DNA of 64,000 bases from positions 5,467 to 69,466 of the forward strand of contig CAZETZ010000006.1 in the NCBI GenBank assembly GCA_964514735.1, read 5' to 3'. Shown one piece after another: positions 1 through 42,555 of the stretch. Numbering within the stretch: position 1 is the first letter of the stretch; each line of letters begins with the position of its first letter. A program made the translations under genes and the position numbers. Origin of the DNA: an uncultured Acidobacteriaceae bacterium (GTDB taxonomy: Bacteria > Acidobacteriota > Terriglobia > Terriglobales > Acidobacteriaceae). The notes under the pieces were generated by a model. It worked only from the letters and a program-made list of their open reading frames with translations. It was not told the origin of the DNA and searched no databases.

Positions 1-338
1 CGTTCCCGGACGAAGGCGAACAGGGCAAAGTTCACTGGCCAGAGAAAAGCCACGGCCTCTACCGCGATCCGCCCAGCGCCGGTGGCCGCAGTTGGGGCAG
101 CAAAAAATTCTATCGCGCGCTGCCCTAGGAACAGAACCAGCAGGGCAAATAGGACCCGGCTGGAATGAAAGCGGCTGACTAATAACATCCCTCCGCCAAA
201 CACAGCGTAGTAATAGAAGGTGATGGCTGAGGGAGCCAGCGGGATTAGACCGCTACGCAACAGCAGCGCAGTTGCGGCAAGGATCAGCGCTCCGGGGAAA
301 ACAAGCGACTTGAAAGTTTTGTGGTCCCAGATCTCCAC
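1..338 (-). CDS. partial (N-terminal part only) hypothetical multi-pass membrane protein, runs off the window
   Basis: The minus-strand frame from GTG (rc of 336-338) is open to position 1. It reads VEIWDHKTFKSLVFPGALILAATALLLRSGLIPLAPSAITFYYYAVFGGGMLLV... and is very hydrophobic. An in-frame TAA lies just upstream. It is not in the ORF track because it is truncated. Confidence 0.3.
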   Translation of the reverse strand, partial: MEIWDHKTFKSLVFPGALILAATALLLRSGLIPLAPSAITFYYYAVFGGGMLLVSRFHSSRVLFALLVLFLGQRAIEFFAAPTAATGAGRIAVEAVAFLWPVNFALFAFVRE

Positions 339-612: not shown

Positions 613-1299
613 ATGCGCATTCTGATTGCTGAAGACGACATTGCCTTGGCCAGTTTCGTTAAAAAAGGTTTGGAAGCGGAGCACTATGCGGCAGACGTAT
701 CCAGCGATGGGGAGCAGTCGCGCGCCATGGCGACCGAACTCGACTATGACTTGGTGGTGCTGGATCTCAACCTGCCGCGGCTGGATGGCGTGGCCGTGCT
801 GCGCTTTCTGCGCACCAAAAAGCCGAGTGTGCCGGTTTTGGTGTTGACCGGGCGCACGCGGGTGGAAGACCGGGTGCAGTGCCTGGATCTGGGCGCGGAC
901 GATTATCTGGTGAAGCCATTTTCCTTTACCGAGCTTTCGGCGCGAATCCGGGCGCTGCTGCGGCGCAGTCATTTGCCGGCCGAGTCGGTGCTGGCGGTGG
1001 ACGATTTGAAGCTGGACCGGGTGGAGCGGAAGGTCGAACGCGGGGGAAAAAGAATCGAGCTTACCTCCAAGGAGTTCGCCTTGCTTGAGTATCTGATGCG
1101 TAATGCCGGGCGGCGGATCACGCGGGCCATGATCATCGAGCATGTGTGGAATCTTTCCTTTGATACCTGTACCAACGTGGTGGATGTTTATGTCAACTAC
1201 CTCCGGCGGAAAGTGGATGATGGGCACGGAAAGCGGCTGATTCACACTATTCGCGGCGTGGGTTATGAATTGAGCGCGCACGCGGAGGCGAACGCTTGA
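613..1299 (+). CDS. OmpR/PhoB-family response regulator (receiver + winged-helix)
   Basis: Receiver motifs are MRILIAEDD, LVVLDLNLPRLDG and DDYLVKPF. The C-terminal winged helix reads LTSKEFALLEYLMRNAGRRITR...IHTIRGVGYEL. Confidence 0.9.
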   Translation: MRILIAEDDIALASFVKKGLEAEHYAADVSSDGEQSRAMATELDYDLVVLDLNLPRLDGVAVLRFLRTKKPSVPVLVLTGRTRVEDRVQCLDLGADDYLVKPFSFTELSARIRALLRRSHLPAESVLAVDDLKLDRVERKVERGGKRIELTSKEFALLEYLMRNAGRRITRAMIIEHVWNLSFDTCTNVVDVYVNYLRRKVDDGHGKRLIHTIRGVGYELSAHAEANA

Positions 1300-3372: not shown

Positions 3373-3387
3373 CGCAGCGCACTGTAT

Positions 3388-7115: not shown

Positions 7116-7219
7116 GCCGGAGCCGACCCGAGGGCCCCCGCGATTTCCCGGGAGCACAGGGGTGGGATGACGTCCAGCCCGTTTTTTTTAAGCGCTGGCG
7201 GTGAAGTCCATACAAGAAG

Positions 7220-16322: not shown

Positions 16323-16485
16323 AAAGGACCTTAATGAACATCTTCCAATCTCTTCCCTCCTTTGCTCGTGAGATTCTTGTCCCGAGATCTTCGCCCGGAT
16401 CCACCCATGCTCTATGTGGTGTGGGGACAGTCATTTCAAGGTAGATCTTGAGGCGGAACCAAGCCCTGTGCTTTCCTAATTCCGC

Positions 16486-16501
16486 GCGGCATCTGACTTG
16501 C
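16486..16501 (+). promoter_or_regulatory. candidate sigma-54 promoter CGGCAT-N5-TTGCA
   Basis: cggcatctgacttgca has GG at 16487-16488 and GC at 16499-16500. It lies downstream of the flgE terminator and 34 nt upstream of ATG 16535. Confidence 0.6.
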
Positions 16502-16534
16502 ACTGCGAAGCGGTGGACTGAACTCACGCTGACT

Positions 16535-16819
16535 ATGGCGGGCGTTGCTGTTGCACCGAAACCCGAACCCGTACCTCCCACCGAGGACCCATCCGCCTGG
16601 GCGCATGTGGCCCACCTCCCCTGCCAGTTGACGGTTGATTTACCGGTGCCGGAATTTACCGTGGGGAATCTGGCCAACCTGGAAAGAGACAGCATTGTGG
16701 ATTCTCACTGGAATGTCACGCAGGATGTGCCGTTACGGGCCAATGGCGAACTGATCGCCTTAAGCGAGTTTGAAGTGTTGGGGGACAAGCTGGCGGTGCG
16801 CGTGACGGAACTGGCCTGA
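16535..16819 (+). CDS. fliN: flagellar motor switch protein FliN (short, SpoA domain only)
   Basis: The SpoA domain reads LPCQLTVDLPVPEFTVGNLANLERDSIVDSHW...LRANGELIALSEFEVLGDKLAVRVTEL. ATG 16535 is preferred over TTG 16448 because of the promoter position. Confidence 0.85.
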   Translation: MAGVAVAPKPEPVPPTEDPSAWAHVAHLPCQLTVDLPVPEFTVGNLANLERDSIVDSHWNVTQDVPLRANGELIALSEFEVLGDKLAVRVTELA

Positions 16820-18937: not shown

Positions 18938-20011
18938 GTGCCAGAGAGTAACCGGACAGAAAAACCGACACCGCGACGGCGGCAGAAAGCGCGGGAGAAA
19001 GGGCAGGTCGCGCGCAGCCGCGACCTGATCAGCAGTTGCGCCGCCATGTCCGGGTTGCTGGTGCTGGCGGCCCAGGTCCCCGCCTTTGCCGGCCGCTGGC
19101 GCATGTTGCTGGCGCGCGCCCTGGCCGGGGCCCCGGCGCTGGAGATGGGAAGCACTGCCTCGCTGCTGAATTGGGGTGGTTCCCTGATGTTGCAGACAGC
19201 GGGACTGGTATTGCTGTTGAGCTGGGTAACGGCCATGGCTGCGGCCCTGGCCCAAGGCGGGCTGGTGTTTGCGCCGGCGGCGCTGCAACCCAGCTTTGCC
19301 CGGCTCAGCCCGGCGGCGCGGGTGGAGCAATTGTTTTCTCTTCCCGCCGTGGGACGCATGTTGAAGTCGCTGCTGCCGGTGGCCGCGATTGTGTTTCTGT
19401 CGGTCACGCTGCTGATGCGGGATTGGGGAGCGCTGCCTGGGTTGCTGCACCGCAACGCGCGCGGGTTGGCCGGGTTTGGACTGGGCCGCATGTTCGAGAT
19501 CGCCTGGAAAGCGGCGCTGGTGCTGCTGCTCTGGTCGGGGGTGGACTATCTGCTGGAGCGGCAAAAAATCGAAGGCGACCTGCGCATGAGCCGCCAGGAG
19601 CTGGCCGATGAGTACAAGGAAATCGAGGGACACCCGGCGATCAAGGGCCGCATCCGCCGCCTGCAACGGCAGATGCGCAAGCGGCGCATGCTCGAGGAAG
19701 TAAAAAAAGCTTCGGTGGTGATCACCAACCCCACCGAGTATGCCGTGGCGCTCGAGTATGGGCCTCTGCTTCCGGCCCCGAGGGTGGTGGCCAAAGGCCG
19801 CAATCTGGTGGCGCAGCAGATCAAAGAAATTGCCCGCTGGCAGGGCATTCCGTTGGTCGAGAACCCGCCGCTGGCCCATGCTTTGTATCGTGCCGTGGAA
19901 GTGGGCCAGGCGATCCCGCCCAAGCTGTACGCCGTGGTGGCGGGGATTCTGGCGGCAATTTTCCGCGCCCAGGAGCGCGCCGCAAAAACCGCCGCAGGAG
20001 GGGGACGCTAG
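18938..20011 (+). CDS. flhB: flagellar export switch protein FlhB
   Basis: The N-terminus reads NRTEKPTPRRRQKAREKGQVARSRDL. It has four TM segments. The autocleavage region reads VVITNPTEYAVALEY. Confidence 0.93.
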   Translation: MPESNRTEKPTPRRRQKAREKGQVARSRDLISSCAAMSGLLVLAAQVPAFAGRWRMLLARALAGAPALEMGSTASLLNWGGSLMLQTAGLVLLLSWVTAMAAALAQGGLVFAPAALQPSFARLSPAARVEQLFSLPAVGRMLKSLLPVAAIVFLSVTLLMRDWGALPGLLHRNARGLAGFGLGRMFEIAWKAALVLLLWSGVDYLLERQKIEGDLRMSRQELADEYKEIEGHPAIKGRIRRLQRQMRKRRMLEEVKKASVVITNPTEYAVALEYGPLLPAPRVVAKGRNLVAQQIKEIARWQGIPLVENPPLAHALYRAVEVGQAIPPKLYAVVAGILAAIFRAQERAAKTAAGGGR

Positions 20012-20014
20012 CCG

Positions 20015-22084
20015 ATGGCCGAGAACTCAATCTCGCTCCCCAACGCGCGCGGCGCGGCCGAGTGGGCCGTCCCCATCGGCGCGGTGAGCCTGGTATTCGT
20101 GATGCTGGTGCCGGTACCGGGGTTCCTGCTCGACCTGCTGCTGGCGACCAGCATCACGGCATCGGTCCTGGTGCTGCTTTCGGCCATCAACATTCTGCGC
20201 CCGGCGCAGTTCTCCGTGTTTCCCAGCTTGTTGCTGCTGCTCACCTTGTTCCGGCTCTCGCTCAACCTGGCTTCCAGCCGCCGCATTCTATTGCACGGTA
20301 ATGAAGGCGCAGGCGCGGCCGGGCATGTGATTGAGGCCTTCGGACAATTTGTGGTCGGCGGCAACTACGTGGTTGGCTTTGTGCTGTTTGTGGCCCTGAT
20401 TGCCATCCAGTACATCGTGGTCAGCCACGGCGCAGTGCGCACCGCCGAGGTCACGGCGCGCTTCACCCTCGATGCTCTGCCCGGCAAGCAGATGGCGATT
20501 GACGCCGACCTCAATGCCGGGCTGATTGATGAAGCCGCGGCGCGGGCGCGGCGAGAGCAAATCGCCCGCGAAGCGGAGTTCTATGGGGCGATGGACGGCG
20601 CGGCGCGTTTCAACCAGCGCGATTCCCTCGCCACCATCCTGATTACCGCGGTCAACATCGTGGCCGGGTTCCTGATCGGCGTCTTTCAGTTGGACATTCC
20701 TCTTCGCGAAGCGCTGAAGACCTATACCGTGCTCACCGTGGGCGACGGACTGGTCACCATGATCCCCTCGCTGCTGGTTTCGATGGCCGGGGGCATGGTG
20801 GTGACCCGCGCCTCCTCCGACGTCGGCCTCTCCGGAGACCTGGGCAAGCAGCTGTTCTCCAAGCGCCGTCCGCTGTGGATCGCTTCGGCGGTGATGCTGG
20901 CGCTGGCCGCCATCCCCGGACTGCCCAAGTTTTCCTTCCTGCTGCTGGGAGCGGTGGTCGGCGTCCTGGCCTGGCGGGCCCCGAAAGCCGATGCCGAAAA
21001 ACCCGCGCCTGCTCCGGGCGCGCCCGGCGCCCCGGAGAAAAAGCCGCAGGAGTCGCTCGAAGAGCTGCTCAAGCTGGACGAGTTAAGTCTCGAGGTCGGT
21101 TACGCGCTGGTGCCGCTGGTGGACAACGCGCAAGGCGGACAGTTGCTGGCCCGGGTAAAGGCGCTGCGCAACAATCTGGCGCTGCAACTGGGCTTCATCG
21201 TGCCTCCAGTGCACATCACCGACAACCCGCGCTTGAAGCCGCGCGAGTACGTGATCTCCATGCGCGGGGTGGAAGTGGCGCGCTGGGAGATGGTTGAAGA
21301 CCACATGCTGGCCATTAGCTCGGAGGCATCTCCGCCACCGCTGGCCGGCGTGCCCACCCGCGAGCCTGCATTCGGCGTGGCCGCGCTGTGGATTGCTCCG
21401 GCGTTGCAGAACCAGGCCCTGGCCTCCGGATACGCGGTGGTGGACCAGACTTCCGTGCTCGCTACCCACCTAGCCGAGGTCATCAAGCAACATGCCGCGG
21501 AGTTGCTGACCCGGCAGGAATCCAAGCGGCTGCTCGACCGCCTGGCGGAGAGTCATCCCAAGCTGGTGGAGGAACTGGTGCCCAAGCTGCTTAGCCTGGG
21601 GGAAGTACAAAAAGTTTTGCAGCAGCTTTTGCGGGAGCAGGTTTCGGTGCGCGACCTGCCCACCATCCTCGAAGCCTTGCTCGATTCCGCCGTGGTCAAT
21701 AAACATCCGGTGGCCCTGGTCGAGGCGGTGCGCCAGGCCCTGGGCCGCGCTTTGGTGAAACCGCTGCTCGGAGACGACGGCGGGCTGAAAGTGATCACCC
21801 TCGACGGCGGGATCGAAGAAGAGTTGGGCAAGGCGTTCAATCCGCAGACCGCGGCCGGCGCCGCCGCCGGGTTGGGGCCGTCGTTTGTGCGGCGCGTGCT
21901 CGATGGGCTGCGGAGTTTGGCGGGCGAGCAAGTGGCGGTGACCAGTCCGGTGCTGCTGTGTCCGACCCCGGCGCGCTTTCATTTGAAGCGCTTGCTGGAG
22001 CCGTTTTTGCCCAAGTTAGTGGTGTTGTCGCCGGGCGAGATTCCGGCCGCGGTGCCGGTGCAGTCGGTGGGGACGGTGCGCTAA
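20015..22084 (+). CDS. flhA: flagellar export gate protein FlhA
   Basis: 689 aa. It carries the FHIPEP motifs GNYVVGFVLFVALIAIQYIVVSHGAVRTAEVTARFTLDALPGKQMAIDADL and a cytoplasmic C-terminal domain. Confidence 0.95.
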   Translation: MAENSISLPNARGAAEWAVPIGAVSLVFVMLVPVPGFLLDLLLATSITASVLVLLSAINILRPAQFSVFPSLLLLLTLFRLSLNLASSRRILLHGNEGAGAAGHVIEAFGQFVVGGNYVVGFVLFVALIAIQYIVVSHGAVRTAEVTARFTLDALPGKQMAIDADLNAGLIDEAAARARREQIAREAEFYGAMDGAARFNQRDSLATILITAVNIVAGFLIGVFQLDIPLREALKTYTVLTVGDGLVTMIPSLLVSMAGGMVVTRASSDVGLSGDLGKQLFSKRRPLWIASAVMLALAAIPGLPKFSFLLLGAVVGVLAWRAPKADAEKPAPAPGAPGAPEKKPQESLEELLKLDELSLEVGYALVPLVDNAQGGQLLARVKALRNNLALQLGFIVPPVHITDNPRLKPREYVISMRGVEVARWEMVEDHMLAISSEASPPPLAGVPTREPAFGVAALWIAPALQNQALASGYAVVDQTSVLATHLAEVIKQHAAELLTRQESKRLLDRLAESHPKLVEELVPKLLSLGEVQKVLQQLLREQVSVRDLPTILEALLDSAVVNKHPVALVEAVRQALGRALVKPLLGDDGGLKVITLDGGIEEELGKAFNPQTAAGAAAGLGPSFVRRVLDGLRSLAGEQVAVTSPVLLCPTPARFHLKRLLEPFLPKLVVLSPGEIPAAVPVQSVGTVR

Positions 22085-22189
22085 GCCGGTCGTTGGTCTC
22101 AAGTCGTTGGTTGTTGGCCCGGCATGTCAGCGCTCCCAACCGCGAAGACGAACGGCCAAAGACCAACGACAGTATTCATGACGGTGTTT

Positions 22190-22981
22190 ATGAGCGAAGC
22201 CAGCAAGAAAGCCTATACCTCGTGGCAGGACGAGCAGGAACGCGAGCGCCTGCTGATGGAGCAGCTCCCCCAGGTGCGCTACATCGCGCGCCGTATCCAT
22301 GAGCGCCTGCCGCGGCATGTGCCCTTTGAAGATCTGGTCCACGCGGGAGTAGTCGGACTAATCGATGCCCTGCACAAATTCGACCGCGGCAAGCACGTGC
22401 AGTTCGGCTCCTATGCCAAGTTCCGCATTCGCGGCGCCATTCTCGACAGCCTGCGGGAGATGGACTGGAGCCCGCGCGACCTGCGGCGCAAGGCGAGGCG
22501 GCTGGAAGAGGCGCACAACAAGTTGCGCTCGGAGCTGGGGCGCAATCCGAGCGAACCCGAGCTGGCGATCGAGCTGGGAATGGACTTGCGCGGGTTGCAG
22601 TTGCTACTGGGAGAAATTAACGGACTGGAGGTCGGCAGCCTGCGGGTGATCTCTCCTCAAGACGGGCGGGAAGAGGACCTGTGCGACTACCTGCCGGACC
22701 AGCCGGAGGAGACCCCGCTGTTGTTATGTCTGCGTTCGGAGATGAAGGGGCTGTTGGCCAAAGCCATCGCGGACTTGCCGGACAAGGAACGCCAGGTGCT
22801 CGCCTTGTACTACTACGAAGAGCTCACCATGAAAGAAGTAGGCACGGTGTTAGGGGTGGGCGAGTCCCGGGTCTCGCAGATTCATTCGATGGCATTGGTC
22901 CGCTTGCGGGCGCGCATGAGTGAACTCACGCAAAGCGGGCAGGTTGCGGAACGCGTCCAGGGCGCGGCGGGAGGAGTGTAG
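22190..22981 (+). CDS. fliA: flagellar sigma factor FliA (sigma-28)
   Basis: Region 2 reads FEDLVHAGVVGLIDALHKFDRGKHVQFGSYAKFRIRGAILDSLRE. Region 4 reads ERQVLALYYYEELTMKEVGTVLGVGESRVSQIHSMAL. ATG 22190 is preferred, and ATG 22178 or 22124 are possible alternatives. Confidence 0.88.
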   Translation: MSEASKKAYTSWQDEQERERLLMEQLPQVRYIARRIHERLPRHVPFEDLVHAGVVGLIDALHKFDRGKHVQFGSYAKFRIRGAILDSLREMDWSPRDLRRKARRLEEAHNKLRSELGRNPSEPELAIELGMDLRGLQLLLGEINGLEVGSLRVISPQDGREEDLCDYLPDQPEETPLLLCLRSEMKGLLAKAIADLPDKERQVLALYYYEELTMKEVGTVLGVGESRVSQIHSMALVRLRARMSELTQSGQVAERVQGAAGGV

Positions 22982-22983: not shown

Positions 22984-23970
22984 ATGGTGGAGAAGATACT
23001 GGACCAGGGGCAAATCGATGCCATGGTGCTGGCCGCGCGCGGCGGCGCCACGCCGGAGGAAAAAACCAAACAGAAAAAAGTCGTTCCCTGGGACGTTCGC
23101 CAAGCGGCGCAAATCGGCCGCGAGCAGATGCACGCCATCAGCCTGCTGCATGAAGGTTTTGCCCGCAATCTGACCAATTCGGTTGGGGCCTATCTGCGGA
23201 TTGGGTTCAACGCCGCCCTGGTGTCGGCGGAACATCTTTCGTTTTCGGAGTTCTTGCAGCGCATCCCCGAGATGACCTACCTGGCCTCGCTCAAGTTGGA
23301 ACCGATGGCGGCCGTCGGGCTGCTGCAACTGGATCTGTCCGTGGCCTTTCCTTTGATTGACGTTCTGCTGGGGGGCGAAGGCAAGGGCGCGCCCCCGGCG
23401 CGCGAGATCACCGAGATTGAAGAACAAATCATCGAAACCGTGGTGCGCATCATTTGCCGCGAGTTGCAGCTTGCCTGGCAGGCAATGACCCTGGAATTCG
23501 AGTTTGAACGCAGGCAGCAGCCGCAACAGGTGCAGCAACTGATGCCGGCGGAAGAGAAGACCCTGTCCATGAGCTTTGAGATCACGGTGGCGGAAAGCCG
23601 GGGGACCATGAACCTGGTGGTGCCGGCCGTGGTCTCCAATGCTCTGTTACGCAAGCTTTCGGTGGGATGGGCGACGGCCAAGCGCAAGGCGCGGACCGAT
23701 TCCAGCCACCGTTTGCAGGACCGCATGTTGGGATGCGCGTTCCAGGCGGAGTTGTGCATGAATTCGGTCACAGTGCCGCTGCGTGAACTGTCCGGACTGG
23801 GACCAGGCGACTTGCTGGTGTTGCGGCGGCGGATTGAGTTGGCCGGAGATCTGGTGATTGGCGGCCAGGACATGTTTCAAGCCACCGTGGCGCGACGCGG
23901 GCCACAGCGGGCGGCCCAATTGCTGGGACGTTGTGCTCCGCCAGAATCCGCAAGGAAACATACCCCATGA
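22984..23970 (+). CDS. fliM: flagellar motor switch protein FliM
   Basis: The N-terminal CheY-P-binding-like peptide is ILDQGQIDAMV. The middle domain is CheC-like (LLQLDLSVAFPLIDVLLGG) and the C-terminus is SpoA-like. Confidence 0.88.
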   Translation: MVEKILDQGQIDAMVLAARGGATPEEKTKQKKVVPWDVRQAAQIGREQMHAISLLHEGFARNLTNSVGAYLRIGFNAALVSAEHLSFSEFLQRIPEMTYLASLKLEPMAAVGLLQLDLSVAFPLIDVLLGGEGKGAPPAREITEIEEQIIETVVRIICRELQLAWQAMTLEFEFERRQQPQQVQQLMPAEEKTLSMSFEITVAESRGTMNLVVPAVVSNALLRKLSVGWATAKRKARTDSSHRLQDRMLGCAFQAELCMNSVTVPLRELSGLGPGDLLVLRRRIELAGDLVIGGQDMFQATVARRGPQRAAQLLGRCAPPESARKHTP

Positions 23971-24833
23971 GTGCCTCCGATCCAGCCCCGCTGTTGGCCG
24001 AAGCCAGGGCTTACATGGAGCGCTGGGCCGGGAGTATGGCCCAGGTGCTCGGCCAGATCGCCGGCGCGGCCTTCGCCATCGAATCGACCGAAGCCGGGCC
24101 ACCGGATGCGGTGCCGCCCCACGACTCCGACCTGCACGCGCTGGTGGTTTCTTCGGGCACCCTGCGTGGAGAGCTGAGCCTCCGCTTTCCCAAGTCAGTC
24201 GCCCTCGGCCTGGCGCAGTTGTTATTGGGAGAGGCGCAGAATCCGGCCGCGGAGTTTACTTCCGAATACCGGGAAGCGGCGGAAGAATTGCTGCGGCAGA
24301 TTGCCGGCCATGCCTCCACTTCCTTGAAGGAACGATGGGGAGAAGTGCAGTTACGGATCGAAACCGGCAATCCCCCATCGTGGCCCCCGGGGGCCAGCGC
24401 GTGGATGAGTTCGGCCGCGGACACGCCGTTTCGGGTGTGGGCGGAGTGGCAATTGAGCGCGGCCCTGATCGCTGCCTTGCGTATGGCTGAAGCTAAGGCG
24501 CAGGTGCTGGCCAATGCGCAGGCCCAGCTCCCAGCGCCCGGAGCCGAGGACCCATCCCCGGCCCCGCCGCCGGGGAAGACGGCTGCCGCGGGGATGATCG
24601 GCAAGTTCATGGACGTGGAACTGGCCGTGACTTTGCGTTTTGGCGGACGGCGTATGCCGCTGCGGGAAGTTTTGGAATTGAATAGCGGCTCGGTGGTGGA
24701 GCTTGACCGGCAGGTGCAGGACCCGGCAGACCTGTTGCTCGACGGACGAGTCATCGCCCGCGGCGAAGTGGTGGTGGTGGACGGAAACTATGGTCTGCGC
24801 GTGCTCGAACTGGTGCCGCGGTCGGACCCCTAG
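23967..24833 (+). CDS. FliY-like long FliN paralogue (CheC-like N-domain without the phosphatase motif + SpoA domain)
   Basis: ATGA overlap with fliM. The C-terminal SpoA domain reads MDVELAVTLRFGGRRMPLREVLELNSGSVVELDRQVQDPADLLLDGRVIARGEVVVVDGNYGLRVLEL. I see no ExxN...P phosphatase motif in the N-terminal part. Confidence 0.8.
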   Translation: MSASDPAPLLAEARAYMERWAGSMAQVLGQIAGAAFAIESTEAGPPDAVPPHDSDLHALVVSSGTLRGELSLRFPKSVALGLAQLLLGEAQNPAAEFTSEYREAAEELLRQIAGHASTSLKERWGEVQLRIETGNPPSWPPGASAWMSSAADTPFRVWAEWQLSAALIAALRMAEAKAQVLANAQAQLPAPGAEDPSPAPPPGKTAAAGMIGKFMDVELAVTLRFGGRRMPLREVLELNSGSVVELDRQVQDPADLLLDGRVIARGEVVVVDGNYGLRVLELVPRSDP

Positions 24834-24842: not shown

Positions 24843-25754
24843 ATGCGTATTTGGAATTGGGTCTCTGAAACCTGGCGGGCATGGGAGTCCACGCTGCCCC
24901 ATTGCGCGGAAGCCGGTTGCAGGGCAGGCAGCAAGCTTGGCCTACGCCGTGCCGGGCTGGAGTTACAAGGCCGGTGGTATTGCTCGCCGCAATGCGTAGA
25001 GAAGGCGGTGCGGCGCTATTTCATGCGCTCGGCGGTGGCCGTGCTGCCGACCCCGCGCGCACAGCACCGTATCCCGCTGGGGTTGTTGATGCTCTCGCGC
25101 GGAGAGCTGGAAAATTCCCAATTGCGTTCCGCGCTGGCCGCCCAGCGTTCTGACGGCGGGGGCAGGATCGGGGAGTGGCTGGTGAAGCTTGGCTACGCCA
25201 CCGAACCGCAAATTACAACTGCGTTGGGCCTGCAGTGGGCCTGTCCTGTAGTGCCCCCACCGCTGGCACGGGGCGATCTGGAAAGCGCCGGGTTGCTGCC
25301 CTACCGGCTGATGCAGCAGTTCCGCATGCTGCCGATTTATTTTTCCCGCGCCAACCGGGTGATTTATGTGGCCTTCTCCGAAAGCGTCGACTACACCGCG
25401 CTCTATGCCATTGAACAGATGTTGGAGTGCCGCAGCGAAGCTTGCGTAACCGGCAGTTGCGCCATGTCGCAGGCACTGGAAACTCTGGGCCGGGCCCGCC
25501 GTTCCGGAGAGCTCCTTTTTGAAGGATGGCGCAGCGTCGAAGAGATGGCGCGGACCACCTGTGGCTGCATGTTGAAAATGGGCGCCCGCACCATCCGGAC
25601 AGTGGCCTGCGGCGCCTACATTTGGGTGCGGCTTAAAGCAAACGACGAGCAGGTCGATCTCTTATTCCGGCGTACGGAAGCGCAACCCGGCGGGGTAGAG
25701 GCCGGGCAAGATGAGAAACCGCTCATACCTGCCCGCCCGAGCCGGGTCTCGTAA
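24843..25754 (+). CDS. Cys-motif (TRASH-like) + T2SSE_N/MshEN-like domain protein, putative c-di-GMP receptor
   Basis: The N-terminus reads HCAEAGC...WYCSPQCVEKAVRRYF. A tandem 24-aa motif follows: PLGLLMLSRGELENSQLRSALAAQ, spacer RSDGGG, then RIGEWLVKLGYATEPQITTALGLQ. After it comes a GspE-N-like region, LLPYRLMQQFRMLPIYFSRANRVIYVAFSESVDYTALYAIEQML. Confidence 0.65.
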   Translation: MRIWNWVSETWRAWESTLPHCAEAGCRAGSKLGLRRAGLELQGRWYCSPQCVEKAVRRYFMRSAVAVLPTPRAQHRIPLGLLMLSRGELENSQLRSALAAQRSDGGGRIGEWLVKLGYATEPQITTALGLQWACPVVPPPLARGDLESAGLLPYRLMQQFRMLPIYFSRANRVIYVAFSESVDYTALYAIEQMLECRSEACVTGSCAMSQALETLGRARRSGELLFEGWRSVEEMARTTCGCMLKMGARTIRTVACGAYIWVRLKANDEQVDLLFRRTEAQPGGVEAGQDEKPLIPARPSRVS

Positions 25755-25773: not shown

Positions 25774-25800
25774 TAAAGTCTCGGTCCATGACGCCGATAG
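25774..25800 (+). promoter_or_regulatory. sigma-28 (FliA) promoter TAAA-N15-GCCGATAG upstream of cheY
   Basis: taaa at 25774-25777, an exactly 15-nt spacer, then gccgatag at 25793-25800. It is intergenic, about 100 nt before the cheY ATG. Confidence 0.65.
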
Positions 25801-25903: not shown

Positions 25904-26287
25904 ATGAACAAAGTGCGCGCTCTGATCGTGGACGATTCCTCAGTCATGCGGAAGATTGTGGAGCGTTCGCTTCGCCAAGCGGGAATCGATCTGGCCGAGG
26001 TCCGGGAAGCGGCGAATGGGGCGGAAGGGCTGGGTGCGCTGGGCGAAAGTTCCGTAGATCTGATCCTCTGCGACATCAATATGCCGGTGATGGATGGCAT
26101 CGAATTCCTGCGGCAAATCCAAAGCGTGCAGAACGCCAAGGGGGTCCCGGTGGTCATGATTACCACCGAGGGAAGCGAGTCGCATGTGGTCCAGGCCCTT
26201 TCCATCGGGGCCCGGGGTTATATCCGCAAGCCGTTCACTCCGGAGCAGGTCAAAGAACACGTGGTCCCCTTATTGGATAAAAAATGA
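25904..26287 (+). CDS. cheY: chemotaxis response regulator CheY
   Basis: 127-aa single receiver. Motifs are ALIVDDSSVMRK, LILCDINMPVMDG, VVMITTEG and GYIRKPFTPEQ. Confidence 0.92.
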   Translation: MNKVRALIVDDSSVMRKIVERSLRQAGIDLAEVREAANGAEGLGALGESSVDLILCDINMPVMDGIEFLRQIQSVQNAKGVPVVMITTEGSESHVVQALSIGARGYIRKPFTPEQVKEHVVPLLDKK

Positions 26288-26769
26288 ATTCACCAAAACA
26301 TGCACTTTCGCAGGAAGGAACCCCGGAGAGCTGGCTGCCGCTGCTGGAAGTAGCGGTGAGGGAAGTGTTCGAGATCATGCTGGGCTGCAAGCTGGAGCCG
26401 CTGGTCGAACTCAATTCCACCACCCTGGAGTTTACCGCGATGGTGGGGCTGGCTGGGCAACTGTGCGGCATCATCACCATGCGCAGCACGGCTAAATCCG
26501 CGGTGCTCATGGCGTCCAAGATGTTGGGAATCGATCCCAAGGAAGCCGACCAGCAGACCTGGGACGCGATGGGCGAGGTCACCAATATGGTGGCGGGAAA
26601 TTTCAAGAACAAACTCACCGGGCTGGGAGACAAGTGCATGCTGTCGGTGCCCACGGTGATTACGGGCGCGGACTACTCGTTTCATTCCCTGGCCGACGGC
26701 GGCCCCCTGGAAGTGATGTTTCTGTTTGAAGGATCGCCGCTGTTGATTTCGCTTGAGATCCACAGCTGA
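26284..26769 (+). CDS. cheX: CheX-type CheY-P phosphatase (CheC/CheX/FliY family)
   Basis: It has a single ExxN-x21-P site, DAMGEVTNMVAGNFKNKLTGLGDKCMLSVPTVI, which closely parallels the CheX active-site segment. It is 161 aa and overlaps the cheY stop. Confidence 0.8.
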   Translation: MNSPKHALSQEGTPESWLPLLEVAVREVFEIMLGCKLEPLVELNSTTLEFTAMVGLAGQLCGIITMRSTAKSAVLMASKMLGIDPKEADQQTWDAMGEVTNMVAGNFKNKLTGLGDKCMLSVPTVITGADYSFHSLADGGPLEVMFLFEGSPLLISLEIHS

Positions 26770-31566: not shown

Positions 31567-31593
31567 TAAAGTCTTCTAACCCGCTGTCGATAG
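31567..31593 (+). promoter_or_regulatory. sigma-28 promoter TAAA-N15-GTCGATAG upstream of flgM
   Basis: taaa at 31567-31570, a 15-nt spacer, then gtcgatag at 31586-31593, 36 nt before the flgM ATG. Confidence 0.6.
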
Positions 31594-32133: not shown

Positions 32134-32547
32134 ATGGACGCGCGATCCTCCTCAGCCCTCGAGTGTCGGGCCCACCGGGTCTTGTTATGGCGCGAGTTAG
32201 CGGCCGCCTTGCAAAAGGCGCAGCGGGCGATTGTGATGGCGGACCCGAAGGGCATGGAAGCCGGTCTTTCCGCGCAGCACCAACTGTGCCTGGCGCTGAT
32301 TGCGCTGGGAAGTGTGGAGCGCGAGCAACTTTTGCCTGATGCGAACGCCGCCGCGCGGGCGCGCTGGAGCGCGCTGACCCGCGAGTTGCAGACGATGCAA
32401 GGCCGCAGCCAACACCTGGGGCGCGTGCAAGCGGCGCTGCTGCGGCGTTCGCAGCGGGCCCAGGAATTAATGGCGCGCCTGCTGGCGACCACCGCCGTCA
32501 CCTATGTTCCGCCGCTCATCCGTGCCACGGCGGCCGCTGGGAAGTAA
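32134..32547 (+). CDS. FlgN-like export chaperone (by position and helical character)
   Basis: A 137-aa helical protein directly upstream of flgK-flgL and downstream of flgM. Sequence similarity to FlgN is only impressionistic. Confidence 0.45.
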   Translation: MDARSSSALECRAHRVLLWRELAAALQKAQRAIVMADPKGMEAGLSAQHQLCLALIALGSVEREQLLPDANAAARARWSALTRELQTMQGRSQHLGRVQAALLRRSQRAQELMARLLATTAVTYVPPLIRATAAAGK

Positions 32548-34836: not shown

Positions 34837-35226
34837 ATGCAAAACCAAAGCAAACATCAGAGTGGTATCGAACAATTTCGCAAGGGCGCTTACGGCGATG
34901 CCTTGCACCTGCTCAGCGAAGCCCTGCTGGAACAGGAAACCTGTGAACTATGGAACGATTGGGCGACGGCCCAAGCGGCTTGCGGACAGATGGAAGAAGC
35001 CAAAAAAGGATATCAGCGCGCGCTGCAACTGAATGTCAACGACAGTCAAAGCGCCGCCAACCTGGGTGTGCTGTTGTATGGTGAAGGAAAAATCAGCCAG
35101 GCAGTCCCCTTACTGGAAAGAAGCCTCGACGGGCTGGATGCAGCGCAACGCAAGCTCGTACTTGAGTTGCTGGAGCAGTCCGGAAAACATCCCGCAGCCA
35201 TCCACCGTCGGGCCGCGGGAAGTTAA
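34837..35226 (+). CDS. small TPR-repeat protein (about 130 aa)
   Basis: It has TPR-like repeats (YGDALHLLSEAL..., EEAKKGYQRALQLNVNDSQSAANLGVLLYGEGKISQAVPLLERSL). ATG 34837 has AGGA upstream, and an alternative GTG at 34819 overlaps the flgL stop. Confidence 0.6.
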   Translation: MQNQSKHQSGIEQFRKGAYGDALHLLSEALLEQETCELWNDWATAQAACGQMEEAKKGYQRALQLNVNDSQSAANLGVLLYGEGKISQAVPLLERSLDGLDAAQRKLVLELLEQSGKHPAAIHRRAAGS

Positions 35227-35591
35227 CGGCGACGCAGCATTTCCTGGGTTTGGACCCAGCCACTGGCCGCTTGCAGGTGAGCGCGATCGCGCTCGAGGCG
35301 CGCCTTTTCAGCGGCATAGCGTGCCTGCAATCCCGGCAACAGGAAGGCGAGATTTTCCAGGTGCTTCCGGTATTCTGCCCACGCCTCCGCCAACGAGGCA
35401 TCGCCGCTGTCGGATTTTGCCGCACGCAGTTGTTCCATCTTTCGCAATTCCGACGACAGGCGCAGCAGGTCGGCCGCTACAATTCGCAGTGGACCGGATT
35501 CCTGCTCCTGCGCCAATCTCAAGAAATGGGACAACTTGCGGTTCGTTTCCTGCACTTGTTGCAACCCGACAGGCGCCACTAGATGCTCCAA
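35223..35591 (-). CDS. helical 122-aa protein in the FliT position (after fliS)
   Basis: TTG start overlapping the fliS end. Codon usage looks coding. Synteny is fliD-fliS-X. I recognise no sequence motif. Confidence 0.4.
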   Translation of the reverse strand: MEHLVAPVGLQQVQETNRKLSHFLRLAQEQESGPLRIVAADLLRLSSELRKMEQLRAAKSDSGDASLAEAWAEYRKHLENLAFLLPGLQARYAAEKARLERDRAHLQAASGWVQTQEMLRRR

Positions 35592-36028
35592 CGCAGGGTT
35601 TTCTCAGGGGAGGGTTGCAGTACGGGGGTGGACGATGCGGGCAGTCCGGCGGCGCCTTGGGCCGAACGTTCCACTTGCACCCAGGCTTCACGCAACTCCA
35701 AAAGGATTTCAATTTGCCTGCGTAATTCCGCCGGCAAGACCCGTATCTGGGCCTGTAACAGGGAAACACGCAACGAGTAGTAGTAGTTGTCGAGGTTTCT
35801 GGCGACTTCCCCGCCCTGCTGCATATCCAATGTTCCCTGCAACTGGCCGACCACTCTCAAGGCGTGATCGAGCTCGTTGGTGCGGCGGGCCACGTCTTTT
35901 TTTTCCATGGCGGCAACGGCGCGCTGCAAGTCCTGGATGAGTTGTTCATAAAGCAGGATCACCAGCCGTATCGGCCCGGCGCTGTGTCCGTCGGTGCGGC
36001 GGTAGGCGGAGGATGCGTCCAGGGTCAT
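35579..36028 (-). CDS. fliS: flagellin-specific chaperone FliS
   Basis: Motifs are PIRLVILLYEQLIQDLQRA and ALRVVGQLQGTLDMQQGGEVARNLDNYYYSL. Confidence 0.9.
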   Translation of the reverse strand: MTLDASSAYRRTDGHSAGPIRLVILLYEQLIQDLQRAVAAMEKKDVARRTNELDHALRVVGQLQGTLDMQQGGEVARNLDNYYYSLRVSLLQAQIRVLPAELRRQIEILLELREAWVQVERSAQGAAGLPASSTPVLQPSPEKTLRWSI

Positions 36029-38069: not shown

Positions 38070-39938
38070 CTACCGCAGAAGCGCAAGCACCTGCTGTTGA
38101 GTTTGGTTGGCCTGGGCCAGCGCGGAAATACCGGTCTGGTTCAGGATGGAGAACTTGGTCAAGTTCGCCACTTCTTGCGCGATGTCGGCGGAACGAATGC
38201 CGTCTTCGGCGGCGGTCAGGTTCTGCGTCTGGTTATTGATGACGTTGACGGCGCTCTGTAGGCGGTTGATGCCCGCGCCCAGGTCGCCGCGGATCGCGGC
38301 CACGTTGGCGACCGCCTGGTTGACATCGGTCAGCGCTTTTTTGGCGTTGGCGATGGCGGCTGTGTCATCCGCCCCAGTCAATGCGTCTCCCGCGATGCTG
38401 ACGTGGGAAGCCCCATGGTCGATGTTGGCTGCACCCAATCCACCAACTCCAACCGAGATGGTGCTGGCTCCGCCGCTGGTCGAATCGCTGAGGAAAATGT
38501 CAGTGGTGGTGGAACCGGTGGTCAGCGGATTGCTTAAAGTGCCGAGGACGGTTTCGGTGGTGGTGCTATCCACGGCGACATTGCCGTTCTTGGCCGGATC
38601 GACGATCACCAGGTGGCCATTGGTGGCGCCACTGGTACCGATATAAGCCTGCAAACCGGCAGCATCGGCAGGATTGTTGATGGCAGCCAGCAGGTCCCCG
38701 ATGGTCGATGCTCCGCCCGCGGTGAAGCTAAAGTTCTTGCCCCCGGCGTTGACACTAAAGATTGCGCCGTTGGTGAGGGCCGTAGCCGAGGTCAAGCTTC
38801 CCGTATTACCCACCAGTTGGTTGGTATCGGTAGTGGTACCGGCAATGGTCGGATTGGAAAACGATGTGGGTGCGCCCTGGACAGCCGCGCCCAGCACTGT
38901 GTCGGTGGTGCTTACGGTGAGATTGCCTCTGCCCTGCGGATCGGTGATCTGTAGAACACCGGCATTGAGGACAGCTTTCGCGCCCACAGTGGCGTCCGCG
39001 TTGATGGCGTTGACCAGGTCCTGCACGGTAGAACCCGACGCGTGAGTTTCGGTCGCCGCCGCGCCGGTGAGAATATCGCCGCCGGTAACCGCCAGGTTGC
39101 CATGCGAGGCGGTATCGATGATCTCAACCTGTCCGGTGGACAACAACTTCGCCTTGAGGCCGGTCAGCGCGCCGCCAGCGACTGTAAGGCCTGCCGCAGG
39201 GGTGCCGCCGTTAATGGCGTCGACCAGGTTTTGCACGGTGTTGGTGGTGCCGGCGCCGGTGGCAATTGTCGAGGTCAAGCTGCCATGCACGATGGTCAGG
39301 GTTTTGCTCGAGGTCAGAGTGGTGGCGCCGGTATACGGGCCGCCGCCGGAGCTGACCGTCGCATTGGGATTGGTGATGCCTGCCGTGGTGGCAGCGGTGA
39401 AGGTAAAAGTCGCCGTCCCGGAGGTGATGGTCAATTTCTGACCCACTGTCAAGGGGTCGGCCGCGCTTAAAGTCGTTCCATTGGGAGTGTCCTGTTCGTT
39501 CAAGTTCGGCGCCGTCGCGCTTTGGAACACAGCCGTACCGTTGAATGTGGTCTTGCCGCCAATGCGATCAATTTCAGCCTTGATGGCGGAAAATTCGGCA
39601 TCCAGCGCGCCACGTTGCGACTGCGAAACTGTACCGGTCGCGGCTTCCGTAGCCAGCGTGACTGCGCGGTTGAGCAGGGTCGTCACCTGGGCCAGCGCGC
39701 CGTCGGCCACTTGCAATTTGCCGACTCCGTCATTCGCGTTGCGGGAGGATTGTGTCAAAGCGGTAATGTTGGCGTGCAATCCATCCGCGATGGCCAGACC
39801 TGCGGCGTCGTCGGCTCCGGTGTTGATGCGCGATCCGGAAGAGAGACGGAAGAGGGTTTTCGATAGACCGGCACCTGTGATGGTCAGATTGTTCTGAGCA
39901 GCCAGGGACGGAATATTATTCAGGATACTAAGTGCCAT
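38070..39938 (-). CDS. fliC: flagellin (622 aa from ATG 39938)
   Basis: The N-terminus reads MALSILNNIPSLAAQNNLTIT...FRLSSGSRINTGADDAAGLAIADGL and the C-terminus NLTAAEDGIRSADIAQEVANLTKFSILNQTGISALAQANQTQQQVLALLR. Confidence 0.93.
   Translation of the reverse strand: MALSILNNIPSLAAQNNLTITGAGLSKTLFRLSSGSRINTGADDAAGLAIADGLHANITALTQSSRNANDGVGKLQVADGALAQVTTLLNRAVTLATEAATGTVSQSQRGALDAEFSAIKAEIDRIGGKTTFNGTAVFQSATAPNLNEQDTPNGTTLSAADPLTVGQKLTITSGTATFTFTAATTAGITNPNATVSSGGGPYTGATTLTSSKTLTIVHGSLTSTIATGAGTTNTVQNLVDAINGGTPAAGLTVAGGALTGLKAKLLSTGQVEIIDTASHGNLAVTGGDILTGAAATETHASGSTVQDLVNAINADATVGAKAVLNAGVLQITDPQGRGNLTVSTTDTVLGAAVQGAPTSFSNPTIAGTTTDTNQLVGNTGSLTSATALTNGAIFSVNAGGKNFSFTAGGASTIGDLLAAINNPADAAGLQAYIGTSGATNGHLVIVDPAKNGNVAVDSTTTETVLGTLSNPLTTGSTTTDIFLSDSTSGGASTISVGVGGLGAANIDHGASHVSIAGDALTGADDTAAIANAKKALTDVNQAVANVAAIRGDLGAGINRLQSAVNVINNQTQNLTAAEDGIRSADIAQEVANLTKFSILNQTGISALAQANQTQQQVLALLR
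38098..38291. repeat. 194-nt block matching 40177-40370 (3' ends of the two flagellin genes)
   Basis: The same sequence is read at an offset of 2079 nt. The antisense ORF translations (38107.. and 40186..) are identical for 62 codons. Confidence 0.85.
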
Positions 39939-40051
39939 TAGAGTTGCTCCTTGTTGGGGTTTGGTCCCGTCTCCTAGAACCCGCCTCCACAATCACTGGG
40001 GGAGCTGTTCTTTCTTGCCTACACGGAACCTTGCTTTGCCCATCACCACAG

Positions 40052-40078
40052 GCATCGGCAGATCGTAATGAGGCTTTA
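40052..40078 (-). promoter_or_regulatory. sigma-28 promoter for fliC-1 (TAAA-N15-GCCGATGC on the minus strand)
   Basis: The reverse complement of 40052-40078 is taaa gcctcattacgatct gccgatgc. It lies about 115 nt upstream of ATG 39938. Confidence 0.6.
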
Positions 40079-40148
40079 GTTTGCCTAGTCGAAAATGCCC
40101 AGTACCTACGTAACAGACGGTTTTATTACCCCTTTGAGGAACTCGTTC

Positions 40149-42008
40149 TCATCGCAGTAATGCCAGAACCTGCTGCTGAGTTTGGTTGGCCTGGGCCAGC
40201 GCGGAAATACCGGTCTGGTTCAGGATGGAGAACTTGGTCAAGTTCGCCACTTCTTGCGCGATGTCGGCGGAACGAATGCCGTCTTCGGCGGCGGTCAGGT
40301 TCTGCGTCTGGTTATTGATGACGTTGACGGCGCTCTGTAGGCGGTTGATGCCCGCGCCCAGGTCGCCGCGAATGGCGGCGATGTTGGCGACCGCCTGGTT
40401 CACATCGGTCAGCGCTTTTTTGGCGTTGGCGATCGATGCGGCGTCGTCGGCGCCCACCAGCGAATCCCCAGCGATGCTGACGTGGGAAGCTCCGTGGTCC
40501 AGATTGGCGGAACTCAGTCCGGGAACACCGACTGAAATCGTGCTGGCGCCGCCGGCCGTGGAGTCACTGAGGAAAATGTCAGTGGTCGCGGAACCGTTTG
40601 TGAGCGGATTACTCACCGTTCCAAATATGGTTTCGGTGGTTGTGCCGTCAATGGCCAGATTGCCATTCTTGCCAGGGTCAACAATAACCAGTTTTCCATT
40701 GGAGGAGCCGATCGTGCCGATATAAGCCTGCAACCCAGCCGGATCGGCGGGATTGTTAATGGCGGCAAGCAGGTCTCCTAAGGTCGAAGTGGGCCCGGCG
40801 GTGAAAGTGAACTTCTTGCCGCCCGCGTTGAAGCTGGTGATCGCGCCATTCGTAAGTGCGGTCCCTGAGGTCAGACCCGTAGCATTCCCCACCAGTTGAT
40901 TGACATCGGTGGTCGTACCGGAACTGGTTGGGTTGGTGAATGGAGTTGGAGCACCTTGGACCGCAGCTCCCAGCGCGGCGTCGGTAGTGCTGACGGTCAG
41001 GTTGCCGCGGCCCTGGGGGTCGGTAATTTTCAGGGCGCCGCCGGTCAGAACTGCCTTGGCCCCGACCACGGTGTCGGCGTTGATGGCGTTGATTAGATCT
41101 TGCACGGTTGAGGTGGCCGGCGAGTTGTTGAAGCTGGTGGTGCCGGCATTAATAATGTTGAAGCCGGTCACCGTGAGGTTTCCGCTCGCGCCCGTGTCCA
41201 CGATTTGAATTTGCCCACCCACCAGCGAGGCCTTCAGACCGGTGGTGGCGCCGGTCGTGGTGATTCCGGCGACGGTGGCGCCATTGATGGCGTTGATCAG
41301 GTCCTGGACCGTGTTCGTGGTGCCTGCGCCGGTGGCAAAGGTAGTGGTGACGCCGCCGCGCGCTACCGTCAGAGTCTTACTCGAGACCAGGGTGCCGGTT
41401 GGGGTCAATGCCGCGCCGGCGCTGATGGCGGAATTCGGGTTGATGCCTGTCCCCGTGGCGGCGGTGAAAGTAAAAGTCGAGGCCCCGGAAGTAATGGTGG
41501 TCTTCTGGCCGACTGTCAGCGGATCACTCGGACTCAGGTTCGTCACCGCGGCAGGACTGTCCTGCTCATTGAGGTTGGGCGCGGTGGCGCTCACAAATAC
41601 CGCCGTGCCGTTGAAGGTGGTTTTGCCGCCAATGCGGTCGATTTCCGCCTTGATGGCGGAAAACTCGGCGTCGAGTGCCTCGCGCTGGGACTGCGAAACG
41701 GTCCCGGTTGCGGCTTCAGTCGCCAGGGTGATGGCCCGGTCCAGCAACGTCGTAACTTGCCCGAGAGCGCCGTCGGCAACTTGCAGCTTACCCACGCCGT
41801 CATTGGCGTTGCGCGACGACTGAGTCAGGGCGGTGATGTTGGCGTGCAAGCCGTCCGCGATGGCCAGACCGGCGGCGTCATCGGCTCCGGTATTAATGCG
41901 TGAGCCGGAAGAGAGGCGGAATAGGGTCTTTTGCAAACCAGCCTGTGTGATGGTCAGGTTGTTCTGCGCGGCCAGGGATGGGATATTGTTCAGAATGCTT
42001 AATGACAT
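40149..42008 (-). CDS. fliC: flagellin (619 aa), tandem paralogue
   Basis: The N-terminus reads MSLSILNNIPSLAAQNNLTITQAGLQKTLFRLSSGSRINTGADDAAGLAIADGL. The C-terminal 60 aa or so are the same as in the first copy. Confidence 0.93.
   Translation of the reverse strand: MSLSILNNIPSLAAQNNLTITQAGLQKTLFRLSSGSRINTGADDAAGLAIADGLHANITALTQSSRNANDGVGKLQVADGALGQVTTLLDRAITLATEAATGTVSQSQREALDAEFSAIKAEIDRIGGKTTFNGTAVFVSATAPNLNEQDSPAAVTNLSPSDPLTVGQKTTITSGASTFTFTAATGTGINPNSAISAGAALTPTGTLVSSKTLTVARGGVTTTFATGAGTTNTVQDLINAINGATVAGITTTGATTGLKASLVGGQIQIVDTGASGNLTVTGFNIINAGTTSFNNSPATSTVQDLINAINADTVVGAKAVLTGGALKITDPQGRGNLTVSTTDAALGAAVQGAPTPFTNPTSSGTTTDVNQLVGNATGLTSGTALTNGAITSFNAGGKKFTFTAGPTSTLGDLLAAINNPADPAGLQAYIGTIGSSNGKLVIVDPGKNGNLAIDGTTTETIFGTVSNPLTNGSATTDIFLSDSTAGGASTISVGVPGLSSANLDHGASHVSIAGDSLVGADDAASIANAKKALTDVNQAVANIAAIRGDLGAGINRLQSAVNVINNQTQNLTAAEDGIRSADIAQEVANLTKFSILNQTGISALAQANQTQQQVLALLR
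40177..40370. repeat. second copy of the 194-nt identical flagellin 3' block
   Basis: See 38098-38291. Confidence 0.85.
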
Positions 42009-42549: not shown

Positions 42550-42555
42550 GGTGCG

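Follow-up and report, generated by a model that had tools for sequence, protein, structure and literature searches.

A switch-gene-linked MshEN-domain protein of Terriglobia as a candidate cyclic di-GMP input to the flagellum

The DNA analyzed here, henceforth referred to as the window, is a stretch of 64,000 nucleotides (nt) from an uncultured Acidobacteriaceae bacterium (assembly GCA_964514735.1, contig CAZETZ010000006.1) that contains a complete flagellar and chemotaxis region. Directly downstream of the genes for the flagellar switch proteins FliM and a FliY-like protein lies an ATG-initiated open reading frame (ORF) encoding a 303-residue cytoplasmic protein, henceforth the window protein, with three modules: an N-terminal module of four cysteines (4-Cys module), a central domain of predicted MshEN (T2SSE_N) type and a C-terminal β-α-β-β-β module. 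The protein family is real, well conserved and uncharacterized; 373 homologs were retrieved, and database entries of the family are named only “hypothetical protein” or “T2SS protein E N-terminal domain”. The original prediction, made from the letters of the window, had proposed this gene as a candidate cyclic di-GMP (c-di-GMP) input to the flagellar motor. Coordinates of the gene, its modules and the other features discussed are collected in Table 1.

Table 1. Features of the window, and conservation of the ligand-contact positions of the window protein in 201 family sequences (AF2, AlphaFold2; aa, amino acids)
Feature	Position (nt)	Strand	Basis or remark
Gene of the window protein (303 aa, cytoplasmic, three modules)	24843..25754	+	ATG start, ORF list
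4-Cys module, C21, C26, C47, C51	24903..24995	+	Conservation, AF2 secondary structure
MshEN_N, two tandem 24-residue units (aa 78-101, 108-131), 6-residue spacer	25074..25235	+	NF053729; aligned to MshE 5HTL
MshEN_C subdomain, aa 134-216, β-β-α-β-α	25242..25490	+	Pfam MshEN, PDB profile, Foldseek
C-terminal β-α-β-β-β module, aa 223-276, invariant W261 and R263	25509..25670	+	Conservation, AF2
Contact L79 (MshE L10)			Kept in 198/201
Contact G80 (MshE G11)			Kept in 199/201
Contact L94 (MshE L25)			Kept in 200/201
Contact L98 (MshE L29)			Kept in 199/201
Contact Q101 (MshE Q32)			Kept in 198/201
Contact R/K108 (MshE R38)			Kept in 188/201
Contact I/L/V109 (MshE L39)			Nearly all of 201
Contact G110 (MshE G40)			Kept in 200/201
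Contact V/I124 (MshE L54)			Nearly all of 201
Contact L128 (MshE L58)			Kept in 191/201
Contact Q131 (MshE Q61)			Kept in 201/201
FlhB	18938-20011		Neighbor upstream of the gene
FlhA	20015-22084		Neighbor upstream of the gene
FliA (sigma-28)	22124..22981	+	TIGR02479 E=1e-71
FliM	22984..23970	+	PF02154 E=4e-39; TIGR01397
FliY-like switch protein, immediately upstream of the gene	23967..24833	+	Pfam, NCBIfam, gene call
Sigma-28 consensus promoter before cheY	25774-25799	+	Perfect TAAA-N15-GCCGATA
cheY	25904-26287	+	Pfam, NCBIfam; next transcription unit
cheX	26284-26769	+	Pfam, NCBIfam; next transcription unit
Membrane GGDEF diguanylate cyclase, N-terminus, cut by window edge	3..338	-	tblastn, 47% identity to aa 1-113 of the GGDEF protein at locus L014
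OmpR-type response regulator, divergent from GGDEF gene	613..1299	+	Response_reg and Trans_reg_C; 78% identity to the regulator at locus L040
FleQ/FleSR-like sigma-54 tier	~2108-6023	+	2108-3328, 3388-4632, ~4650-6023
Small canonical FliN, just before fliP	16448-16819	+	
Unannotated FlgM-like ORF, 98 aa	31630-31926	+	Typical C-terminal sigma-28-binding sequence
motAB	42556-44107		

The gene is separated from the stop codon of the fliY-like gene by 9 nt; for the latter, position 23931 is an alternative start to 23967. The FliY-like protein contains the FliN C-terminal domain (FliMN_C, E=6.5e-21) together with an N-terminal domain that is weakly CheX/CheC-like (E=2e-5, under the Pfam cutoff). 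An independent gene call on a public contig that carries the identical protein yielded the same gene, flanked by FliM and a FliMN_C protein on one side and by a Response_reg protein and CheX on the other. The gene and its distance from the fliY-like gene are as originally predicted. Between the stop codon and cheY lies a gap of 149 nt, in which a sigma-28 site starts 19 nt past the stop; it reads TAAA-N15-GCCGATAG, and the promoter placed there by the original prediction is real as an exact consensus match. Six sigma-28 sites with at most one mismatch were found in the window versus 0.35 expected from shuffled sequence, and a simple terminator scan 3' of the gene detected no convincing terminator. 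The site at 25774 likely marks where the transcription unit of the gene ends.

Residues 78–220 of the window protein form a complete MshEN domain according to both sequence models and predicted fold. NCBIfam model NF053729 (“c-di-GMP_motif”, MshE-related) matched residues 78–130 with an E-value of 9.4e-10 and a marginal score (38.1 bits against a cutoff of 38), and it matched all 26 relatives that were scanned against Pfam and NCBIfam (best E=2.2e-14; Pfam matches listed down to E≤5). The Pfam MshEN model (PF05157) scored 15 bits on residues 134–216, under its gathering score of 23.1, and was matched by 22 of the 26 relatives, the best at 32 bits and E=1.3e-7. A profile of the family, searched against the PDB, retrieved the crystallized N-domain of MshE (5HTL, E=4e-12) and the N-domains of PilB/PilF (E down to 3e-13), in each case over residues 80–220. 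The AlphaFold2 model of the window protein (mean predicted local distance difference test score (pLDDT) 78, predicted template modeling score 0.67) contains helices at residues 79–130 and a β-β-α-β-α unit at 162–217. Its best Foldseek match in the PDB was again 5HTL, “MshE with cdg” (E=7e-8), followed by c-di-GMP-bound GSPII-B domains of PilF; the top matches 5HTL, 9G1W and 8PDK were returned at a probability of 1.00, and the PilB(N)-PilZ complex 7LKO and XpsE 2D28 were also matched.

No T2SSE ATPase domain, with its Walker A and B motifs, or other enzyme domain was found in the 303 residues, and the match to the PilB equivalog model was confined to the N-domain (residues 82–220 against model positions 5–140 of 564), in agreement with the ATPase-free protein originally described. 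Weak Pfam matches to SymE_toxin in 21 of the 26 relatives mapped to a 16-residue stretch of the second motif, and weak matches to DUF4388/PATAN in eight of them mapped to the first motif. Neither was accepted as an extra domain because both fall inside the MshEN_N units.

The two tandem 24-residue units had been read correctly from the window sequence, with the residues RSDGGG between them. As published, the c-di-GMP-binding motif consists of two units of the form RLGxxL(V/I)xxG(I/F)(L/V)xxxxLxxxLxxQ with a 5-residue spacer, and Wang et al. used the relaxed form [RKPN]hGxxhhxx[GAS]hhxxxxhxxxhxx[QNKRYWST] for database searches (PMC5013675). The second unit of the window protein (RIGEWLVKLGYATEPQITTALGLQ) satisfies the relaxed motif in full, and the first unit (PLGLLMLSRGELENSQLRSALAAQ) misses it at position 11 (Glu) only. 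The relaxed motif also allows Pro as its first residue (PMC5013675). Contact positions, numbered through the alignment to MshE in 5HTL, were counted over 201 family sequences and are listed in Table 1. Across the family, a unit typically misses the relaxed motif at just one position, namely position 11 for unit 1 (168 of the 201 sequences) and position 7 for unit 2 (192 of 201). Single deviations from the motif are tolerated by known binders, e.g., NfrB (PMC8669469). Wang et al. ascribed the loss of c-di-GMP binding in XpsE to eight substitutions (PMC5013675); seven of these are absent from the family, and the sole shared one lies at the I19 position (Q or E). Additionally, an invariant H75-R76 pair, two residues before unit 1, corresponds in the alignment to MshE R7, a residue belonging to the positive patch at the ligand site (PMC5013675). 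Since the contact residues are conserved, Pro is permitted at position 1 and H75-R76 aligns with MshE R7, c-di-GMP binding by the MshEN domain of the family appears likely from sequence.

All family members share the three-module architecture, in which the complete MshEN domain is flanked by the 4-Cys and C-terminal modules. In the AF2 model, the 4-Cys module is laid out as a C-x4-C knuckle, a β-hairpin and a [YF]C[AS]PQC element at the start of a helix. Among the 201 sequences, C47 and C51 are both conserved in 199, C21 in 187 and C26 in 176, and a basic RRLWRR stretch lies between the two Cys pairs in most members. A search of the 26 relatives with zinc-finger Pfam models at E≤5 returned nothing but one zf-MYND match (E=0.42). 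Conservation and modeled structure together indicate that the module is probably a family-specific structural zinc site.

A profile of the C-terminal module, run against 1.84 billion representative proteins, retrieved 354 clusters at 50% identity, of which 92 reached E≤1e-10. The module always lies at about residues 220–285 of proteins of ~300 residues or in fragments; no other architecture and no fusion to FliN was present in this set. Folded alone by AF2, the module reached a pLDDT of 84, and a Foldseek search of the PDB with this fold gave nothing significant (best E=0.03). Because the matches were to generic β-α-β-β-β units, such as VOC/methylmalonyl-CoA epimerase half-domains and URT1, at E≥0.03, no homology is claimed. 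The module is presumed to serve output or docking.

The distribution of the family was determined by a genome scan with one genome per species, in which relatives were present in 345 genomes, and genomic context was taken from the 80 best loci. The 80 best relatives all belong to Acidobacteriota (labeled Terriglobia, Terriglobales, Acidobacteriaceae or Sulfotelmatobacter), almost all are from metagenome-assembled genomes (MAGs), and the family was seen here in Terriglobia only. Organism names attached to the protein clusters likewise led to MAGs alone (“Terriglobales”, “Acidobacteriia”), with no cultured host among them. Synteny was scored by tblastn with the neighbors of the gene in the window, and 78 of the 80 loci had usable upstream sequence. 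In 72 of these 78, fliM and fliN/Y lie immediately upstream of the homolog, at 35–55% protein identity, usually preceded by flhB, flhA and fliA. Measured from the fliN/Y stop, the first start codon of the homolog mostly lies at -8 to +25 nt, and in 11 loci the two genes overlap by 4 nt. Even a very divergent member lies within a fliPQR-flhB-flhA-fliA-fliN-X-flgFG cluster, where X is the homolog and starts at the fliN stop. Flagellar linkage is thus conserved across genomes, and co-transcription with the switch genes, as originally suggested, is strongly backed because the linkage persists down to ~35% identity, often with 4-nt overlaps.

Downstream of the homologs the genes vary, being cheY-cheX, flgF-flgG, an HDOD gene or unrelated genes, and a sigma-28-like site follows the homolog in 11 loci. 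One MAG, JABCZH01 (contigs L023 and L079), contains two complete flhB-flhA-fliA-fliM-fliN/Y-homolog-...-flgFG clusters with one copy of the homolog each, at 45% and 35% identity to the window protein; the duplication reflects a dual flagellar system or, alternatively, a contaminated bin. In four genomes the homolog is immediately followed by an HDOD gene (L036 ~6976-7668, L047 ~1385-2071, L054 ~6958-7623 and L082 6892-7659). The window has an HDOD gene of its own (51981-52874, +), inside a cheA-cheR-HDOD-cheB operon, and HDOD genes are a second recurrent, uncharacterized signaling neighbor of the family.

The six loci lacking fliN upstream have in its place a divergently transcribed gene for a multi-pass membrane GGDEF protein, with or without an OmpR-type response regulator. 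The GGDEF gene stands alone upstream of the homolog in two loci (L014, L019), and the regulator gene lies between the two in four (L040, L046, L052, L073). Six further loci show the order GGDEF(-), regulator, fliM, fliN/Y, homolog. A GGDEF gene was located within 6 kb in 12 of the 80 loci (L009, L013, L014, L019, L020, L040, L042, L046, L050, L052, L053 and L073), and the neighboring GGDEF proteins match PF00990 at E ~1e-30 with an intact GGEEF motif. The divergent member at L082 overlaps the 3' end of a regulator gene by 13 nt and is followed by HDOD, cheY and cheX genes. The same pair of GGDEF and OmpR-type genes heads the flagellar cluster in the window. The membrane cyclase encoded in the cluster is a candidate source of the c-di-GMP signal, and the recurrence of a GGDEF neighbor, which was not part of the original prediction, strengthens the c-di-GMP reading of the window protein.

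On balance, we favor the interpretation that the window protein is a c-di-GMP-responsive flagellar effector of a non-PilZ type, with both ligand binding and flagellar partner being predictions. The core of the original prediction, a candidate input of c-di-GMP to the flagellum through an MshEN-type protein, holds, supported by the domain, the linkage and the GGDEF neighbor. The protein would act as a soluble accessory of the flagellar system that is made together with FliM and FliN/FliY. Its MshEN domain would bind one c-di-GMP between the two tandem helix-loop-helix units, as in Vibrio cholerae MshE and Escherichia coli NfrB, and the ligand would plausibly be supplied by the membrane GGDEF cyclase at the head of the same cluster. 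Ligand binding may shift the contacts that MshEN_C, the C-terminal module (W261, R263) and/or the zinc module make with a flagellar partner. The most probable partner would be the FliM/FliN(Y) part of the C-ring, a best guess made because adjacency to fliN/Y is overwhelming and often takes the form of an overlap. At high c-di-GMP, we infer that motor output (brake, rotational bias) or C-ring assembly would be altered.

Within this effector interpretation, direct action at the C-ring is put forward tentatively, with somewhat less than even confidence. It is also possible, though doubtful, that the family represents a third mechanistic class of flagellar effector, neither a PilZ brake nor of FleQ/FliI type, in which an MshEN protein acts on the FliM/FliN(Y) C-ring with a dedicated cyclase. 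Docking in such a class might proceed via the β-α-β-β-β and zinc modules, and local supply by the cyclase would create a self-contained “local signaling” module in Terriglobia.

Several observations weigh against an effector that responds to c-di-GMP. The window protein clears the NCBIfam cutoff by just 0.1 bit, and its Pfam MshEN score is under the gathering threshold. In 200 of 201 sequences, Pro stands where MshE has the stacking Arg9; unit 1 carries a polar Q/E at position 11, corresponding to the I19 position, where the non-binding XpsE has Arg; position 7 of unit 2 is Glu in 192 of 201 members, although the window protein has Val there; and the spacer has 6 residues in 183 of 201 sequences versus 5 in the published motif. 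Such strong conservation of the motif could equally stem from a protein-protein interface. In some genomes the gene pairs with a transcription regulator instead of switch genes, and gene order alone cannot tell action on rotation from action on assembly or gene expression.

In one rival reading, the protein senses c-di-GMP and controls whether flagella are made, through gene expression or assembly, with an OmpR-type regulator, FliA or the export apparatus as its partner. This would resemble the logic of FleQ/FlrA, but with the sensor as a separate protein. Such a regulator would account for five loci (L040, L046, L052, L073 and L082) in which the gene directly follows that of an OmpR-type regulator with no switch genes between them, for the six loci in which the regulator precedes fliM, and for the presence of the gene in the same run as fliA; the RRLWRR stretch of most members could bind nucleic acid or an acidic partner. 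We nonetheless consider it unlikely: adjacency to fliN/Y is far more common (72/78 loci) and often overlapping, no DNA-binding domain was detected by Pfam in the window protein or its 26 relatives, and a canonical FlgM and a FleQ/FleSR-like sigma-54 tier are already encoded in the window, so the classic regulatory slots are filled. Alternatively, the family could be a c-di-GMP-independent structural or assembly accessory of the C-ring, in which MshEN serves only as a docking module and the motif is kept for fold or interface. Precedents are the degenerate N1 domains of XpsE/GspE, which dock on GspL, and Xanthomonas PilB, which docks on PilZ. A docking role is established for T2SSE_N domains, and some of them, such as that of XpsE, do not bind c-di-GMP (PMC5013675); the Foldseek matches to 7LKO and 2D28 fall on proteins of this kind. 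The departures of the family from the motif at Arg9, the I19 position and the spacer length also fit a docking factor, as does the tight coupling to fliN/Y, which suggests stoichiometric co-assembly. This explanation is judged improbable since 10 of the 11 canonical contact positions are kept at ≥93% over the 201 sequences, both Gly and both Gln among them matter for guanine recognition and not for the fold, all but one of the eight XpsE-type inactivating substitutions are absent, and a recurrent GGDEF neighbor is hard to explain without c-di-GMP.

A further suggestion of the original prediction was that a metal-responsive sensor of TRASH/YHS type couples metal availability to the motor. The TRASH signature is C-x19-22-C-x3-C. 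The Cys motif described from the window is indeed present, its spacing being C21-x4-C26-x20-C47-x3-C51; the “x20” is right when counted from Cys to Cys, but 19 residues are obtained when counting to Tyr46. The window protein therefore fits the signature through C26, C47 and C51, and the [YF]CSxxC element resembles FCS/TRASH fingers. Across the family, however, 139 of 176 sequences have 24 residues between C26 and C47 (x24), and only 25, the window protein included, fall in the 19–22 range. The Pfam models TRASH, YHS and zf-FCS matched none of the 26 members at E≤5, and a PDB profile search with the 4-Cys module alone gave nothing significant, its best match being an unrelated bacteriocin (E=0.12). 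Four invariant Cys arranged as knuckle, hairpin and helix are typical of a structural zinc site. Because models, PDB profile and spacing all speak against the TRASH/YHS label, the idea of a metal signal to the motor is left without basis, and we regard it as very improbable.

Elsewhere in the window, flgBC, fliE to fliK, flgE, fliP to fliR and flgF to flgL are present, and fliD and two flagellin genes are encoded on the minus strand. The two flagellin genes are tandem (38070-42008, -) and unusually large (640 and 619 aa), with long central regions between the conserved N- and C-terminal helices. Two FliN-type genes occur, for the small FliN and the FliY-like protein. Within the sigma-54 tier, the first activator shows a partial receiver match only and no HTH_8 match, and the second combines REC, AAA and HTH_8 domains; in other bacteria, activators of the FleQ type are c-di-GMP receptors. 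The six sigma-28 sites with at most one mismatch (25774, 29066 (-), 31484, 31567, 40053 (-) and 44143) provide a draft map of the class-3 regulon. The flagellin gene 38070-39992 is preceded by the site at 40053 (-), and the FlgM-like ORF by the site at 31567-31592, which has one mismatch. A role of the window protein as an anti-sigma-28 factor was considered and rejected because this FlgM-like gene is already present.

The chemotaxis genes of the window comprise two genes for methyl-accepting chemotaxis proteins (MCPs), cheW, cheA, cheR, the HDOD gene and cheB. A gene for a beta-class carbonic anhydrase (44160-44981, +) lies between motB and the MCP/che operon, an unusual site in a motility region. 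Long ORFs lacking a Pfam match are found at 42178-43353 (-), 35033-35725 (+) and 32134-32547 (+); the last occupies the position expected for flgN, and the first overlaps motA on the opposite strand and, given the high G+C content, is probably spurious. As the original prediction had noted, no PilZ gene was seen: Pfam detected no PilZ domain in 46 window ORFs, the unscanned core flagellar genes being assigned by position or tblastn only, and no match in the window protein or its 26 relatives. An Rfam scan of the window returned no family at threshold, c-di-GMP riboswitches included.

To our knowledge, the direct c-di-GMP effectors of the flagellar motor known to date all use PilZ. The characterized roles of MshEN domains are in pilus and secretion ATPases and in the glycosyltransferase NfrB. 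If the proposed function is correct, the family would extend MshEN signaling to the flagellum and offer a first handle on the switch between swimming and sessile life in the abundant, poorly studied Acidobacteria of soil; it also brings two uncharacterized protein modules with invariant residues. The widespread c-di-GMP receptor domains recognized are PilZ, MshEN and, more recently, ComFB only (PMC12448109). The literature searched, on MshEN with flagellar or switch proteins and on c-di-GMP and flagella in Acidobacteria, contained no MshEN protein tied to a flagellar switch operon.

The best sequence and structure matches of the window protein are the MshEN domains of MshE, PilB and PilF (PF05157; 5HTL, 5ZFR, 8PDK), with which it shares the fold, both subdomains, of which MshEN_N is a four-helix unit and MshEN_C is α/β, and the key Leu, Gly and Gln contacts. 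It differs from these proteins in having no ATPase domain, in its 4-Cys and novel C-terminal modules, in the Pro that replaces Arg at motif position 1, in the 6-residue spacer, and in the location of its gene in a flagellar cluster and not in a pilus or secretion cluster. The PATAN (DUF4388) regulators PatA, PixG and PixE are likewise non-ATPase regulators of motility, and the Pfam PATAN model gives a weak, sub-threshold match to the first motif only (eight of 26 members, within residues 71–124); PATAN proteins, in contrast, contain REC domains and have type IV pili as their target. The PilZ effectors YcgR, FlgZ and MotI/DgrA, defined by a PilZ domain with RxxxR and D/NxSxxG motifs, are small cytoplasmic c-di-GMP receptors that are co-regulated with the flagellum and act on rotor or stator. 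Their likeness to the window protein is in the proposed role only, the ligand domain being unrelated (MshEN versus PilZ/PilZN, neither of which was detected).

Fusions of MshEN to CheA, CheX and REC domains were catalogued by Wang et al. in 2016 (PMC5013675), and a link between MshEN and motility signaling was therefore already anticipated. Those fusions join MshEN to known signaling domains, whereas the window protein is encoded by a stand-alone, switch-operon-linked gene; the text and supplement of that study mention no flagellar protein or acidobacterial example (PMC5013675). E. coli NfrB, a glycosyltransferase that carries an MshEN domain at its C-terminus, is the product of a FliA-dependent class 3 gene, has been shown to bind c-di-GMP and is served by the cyclase DgcJ (PMC8669469). 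It resembles the window protein in its non-ATPase MshEN domain, the “R-P-L-G” type start of motif 1, flagellar co-regulation and a dedicated cyclase, and the NCBIfam NfrB model matches the window protein at E=1.9e-6. NfrB is a membrane glycosyltransferase/exopolysaccharide synthase that hinders motility indirectly through secreted polysaccharide (PMC8669469), whereas the window protein lacks any enzyme domain and its gene lies within the switch operon. By analogy, NfrB is the nearest experimentally characterized relative of the window protein in logic.

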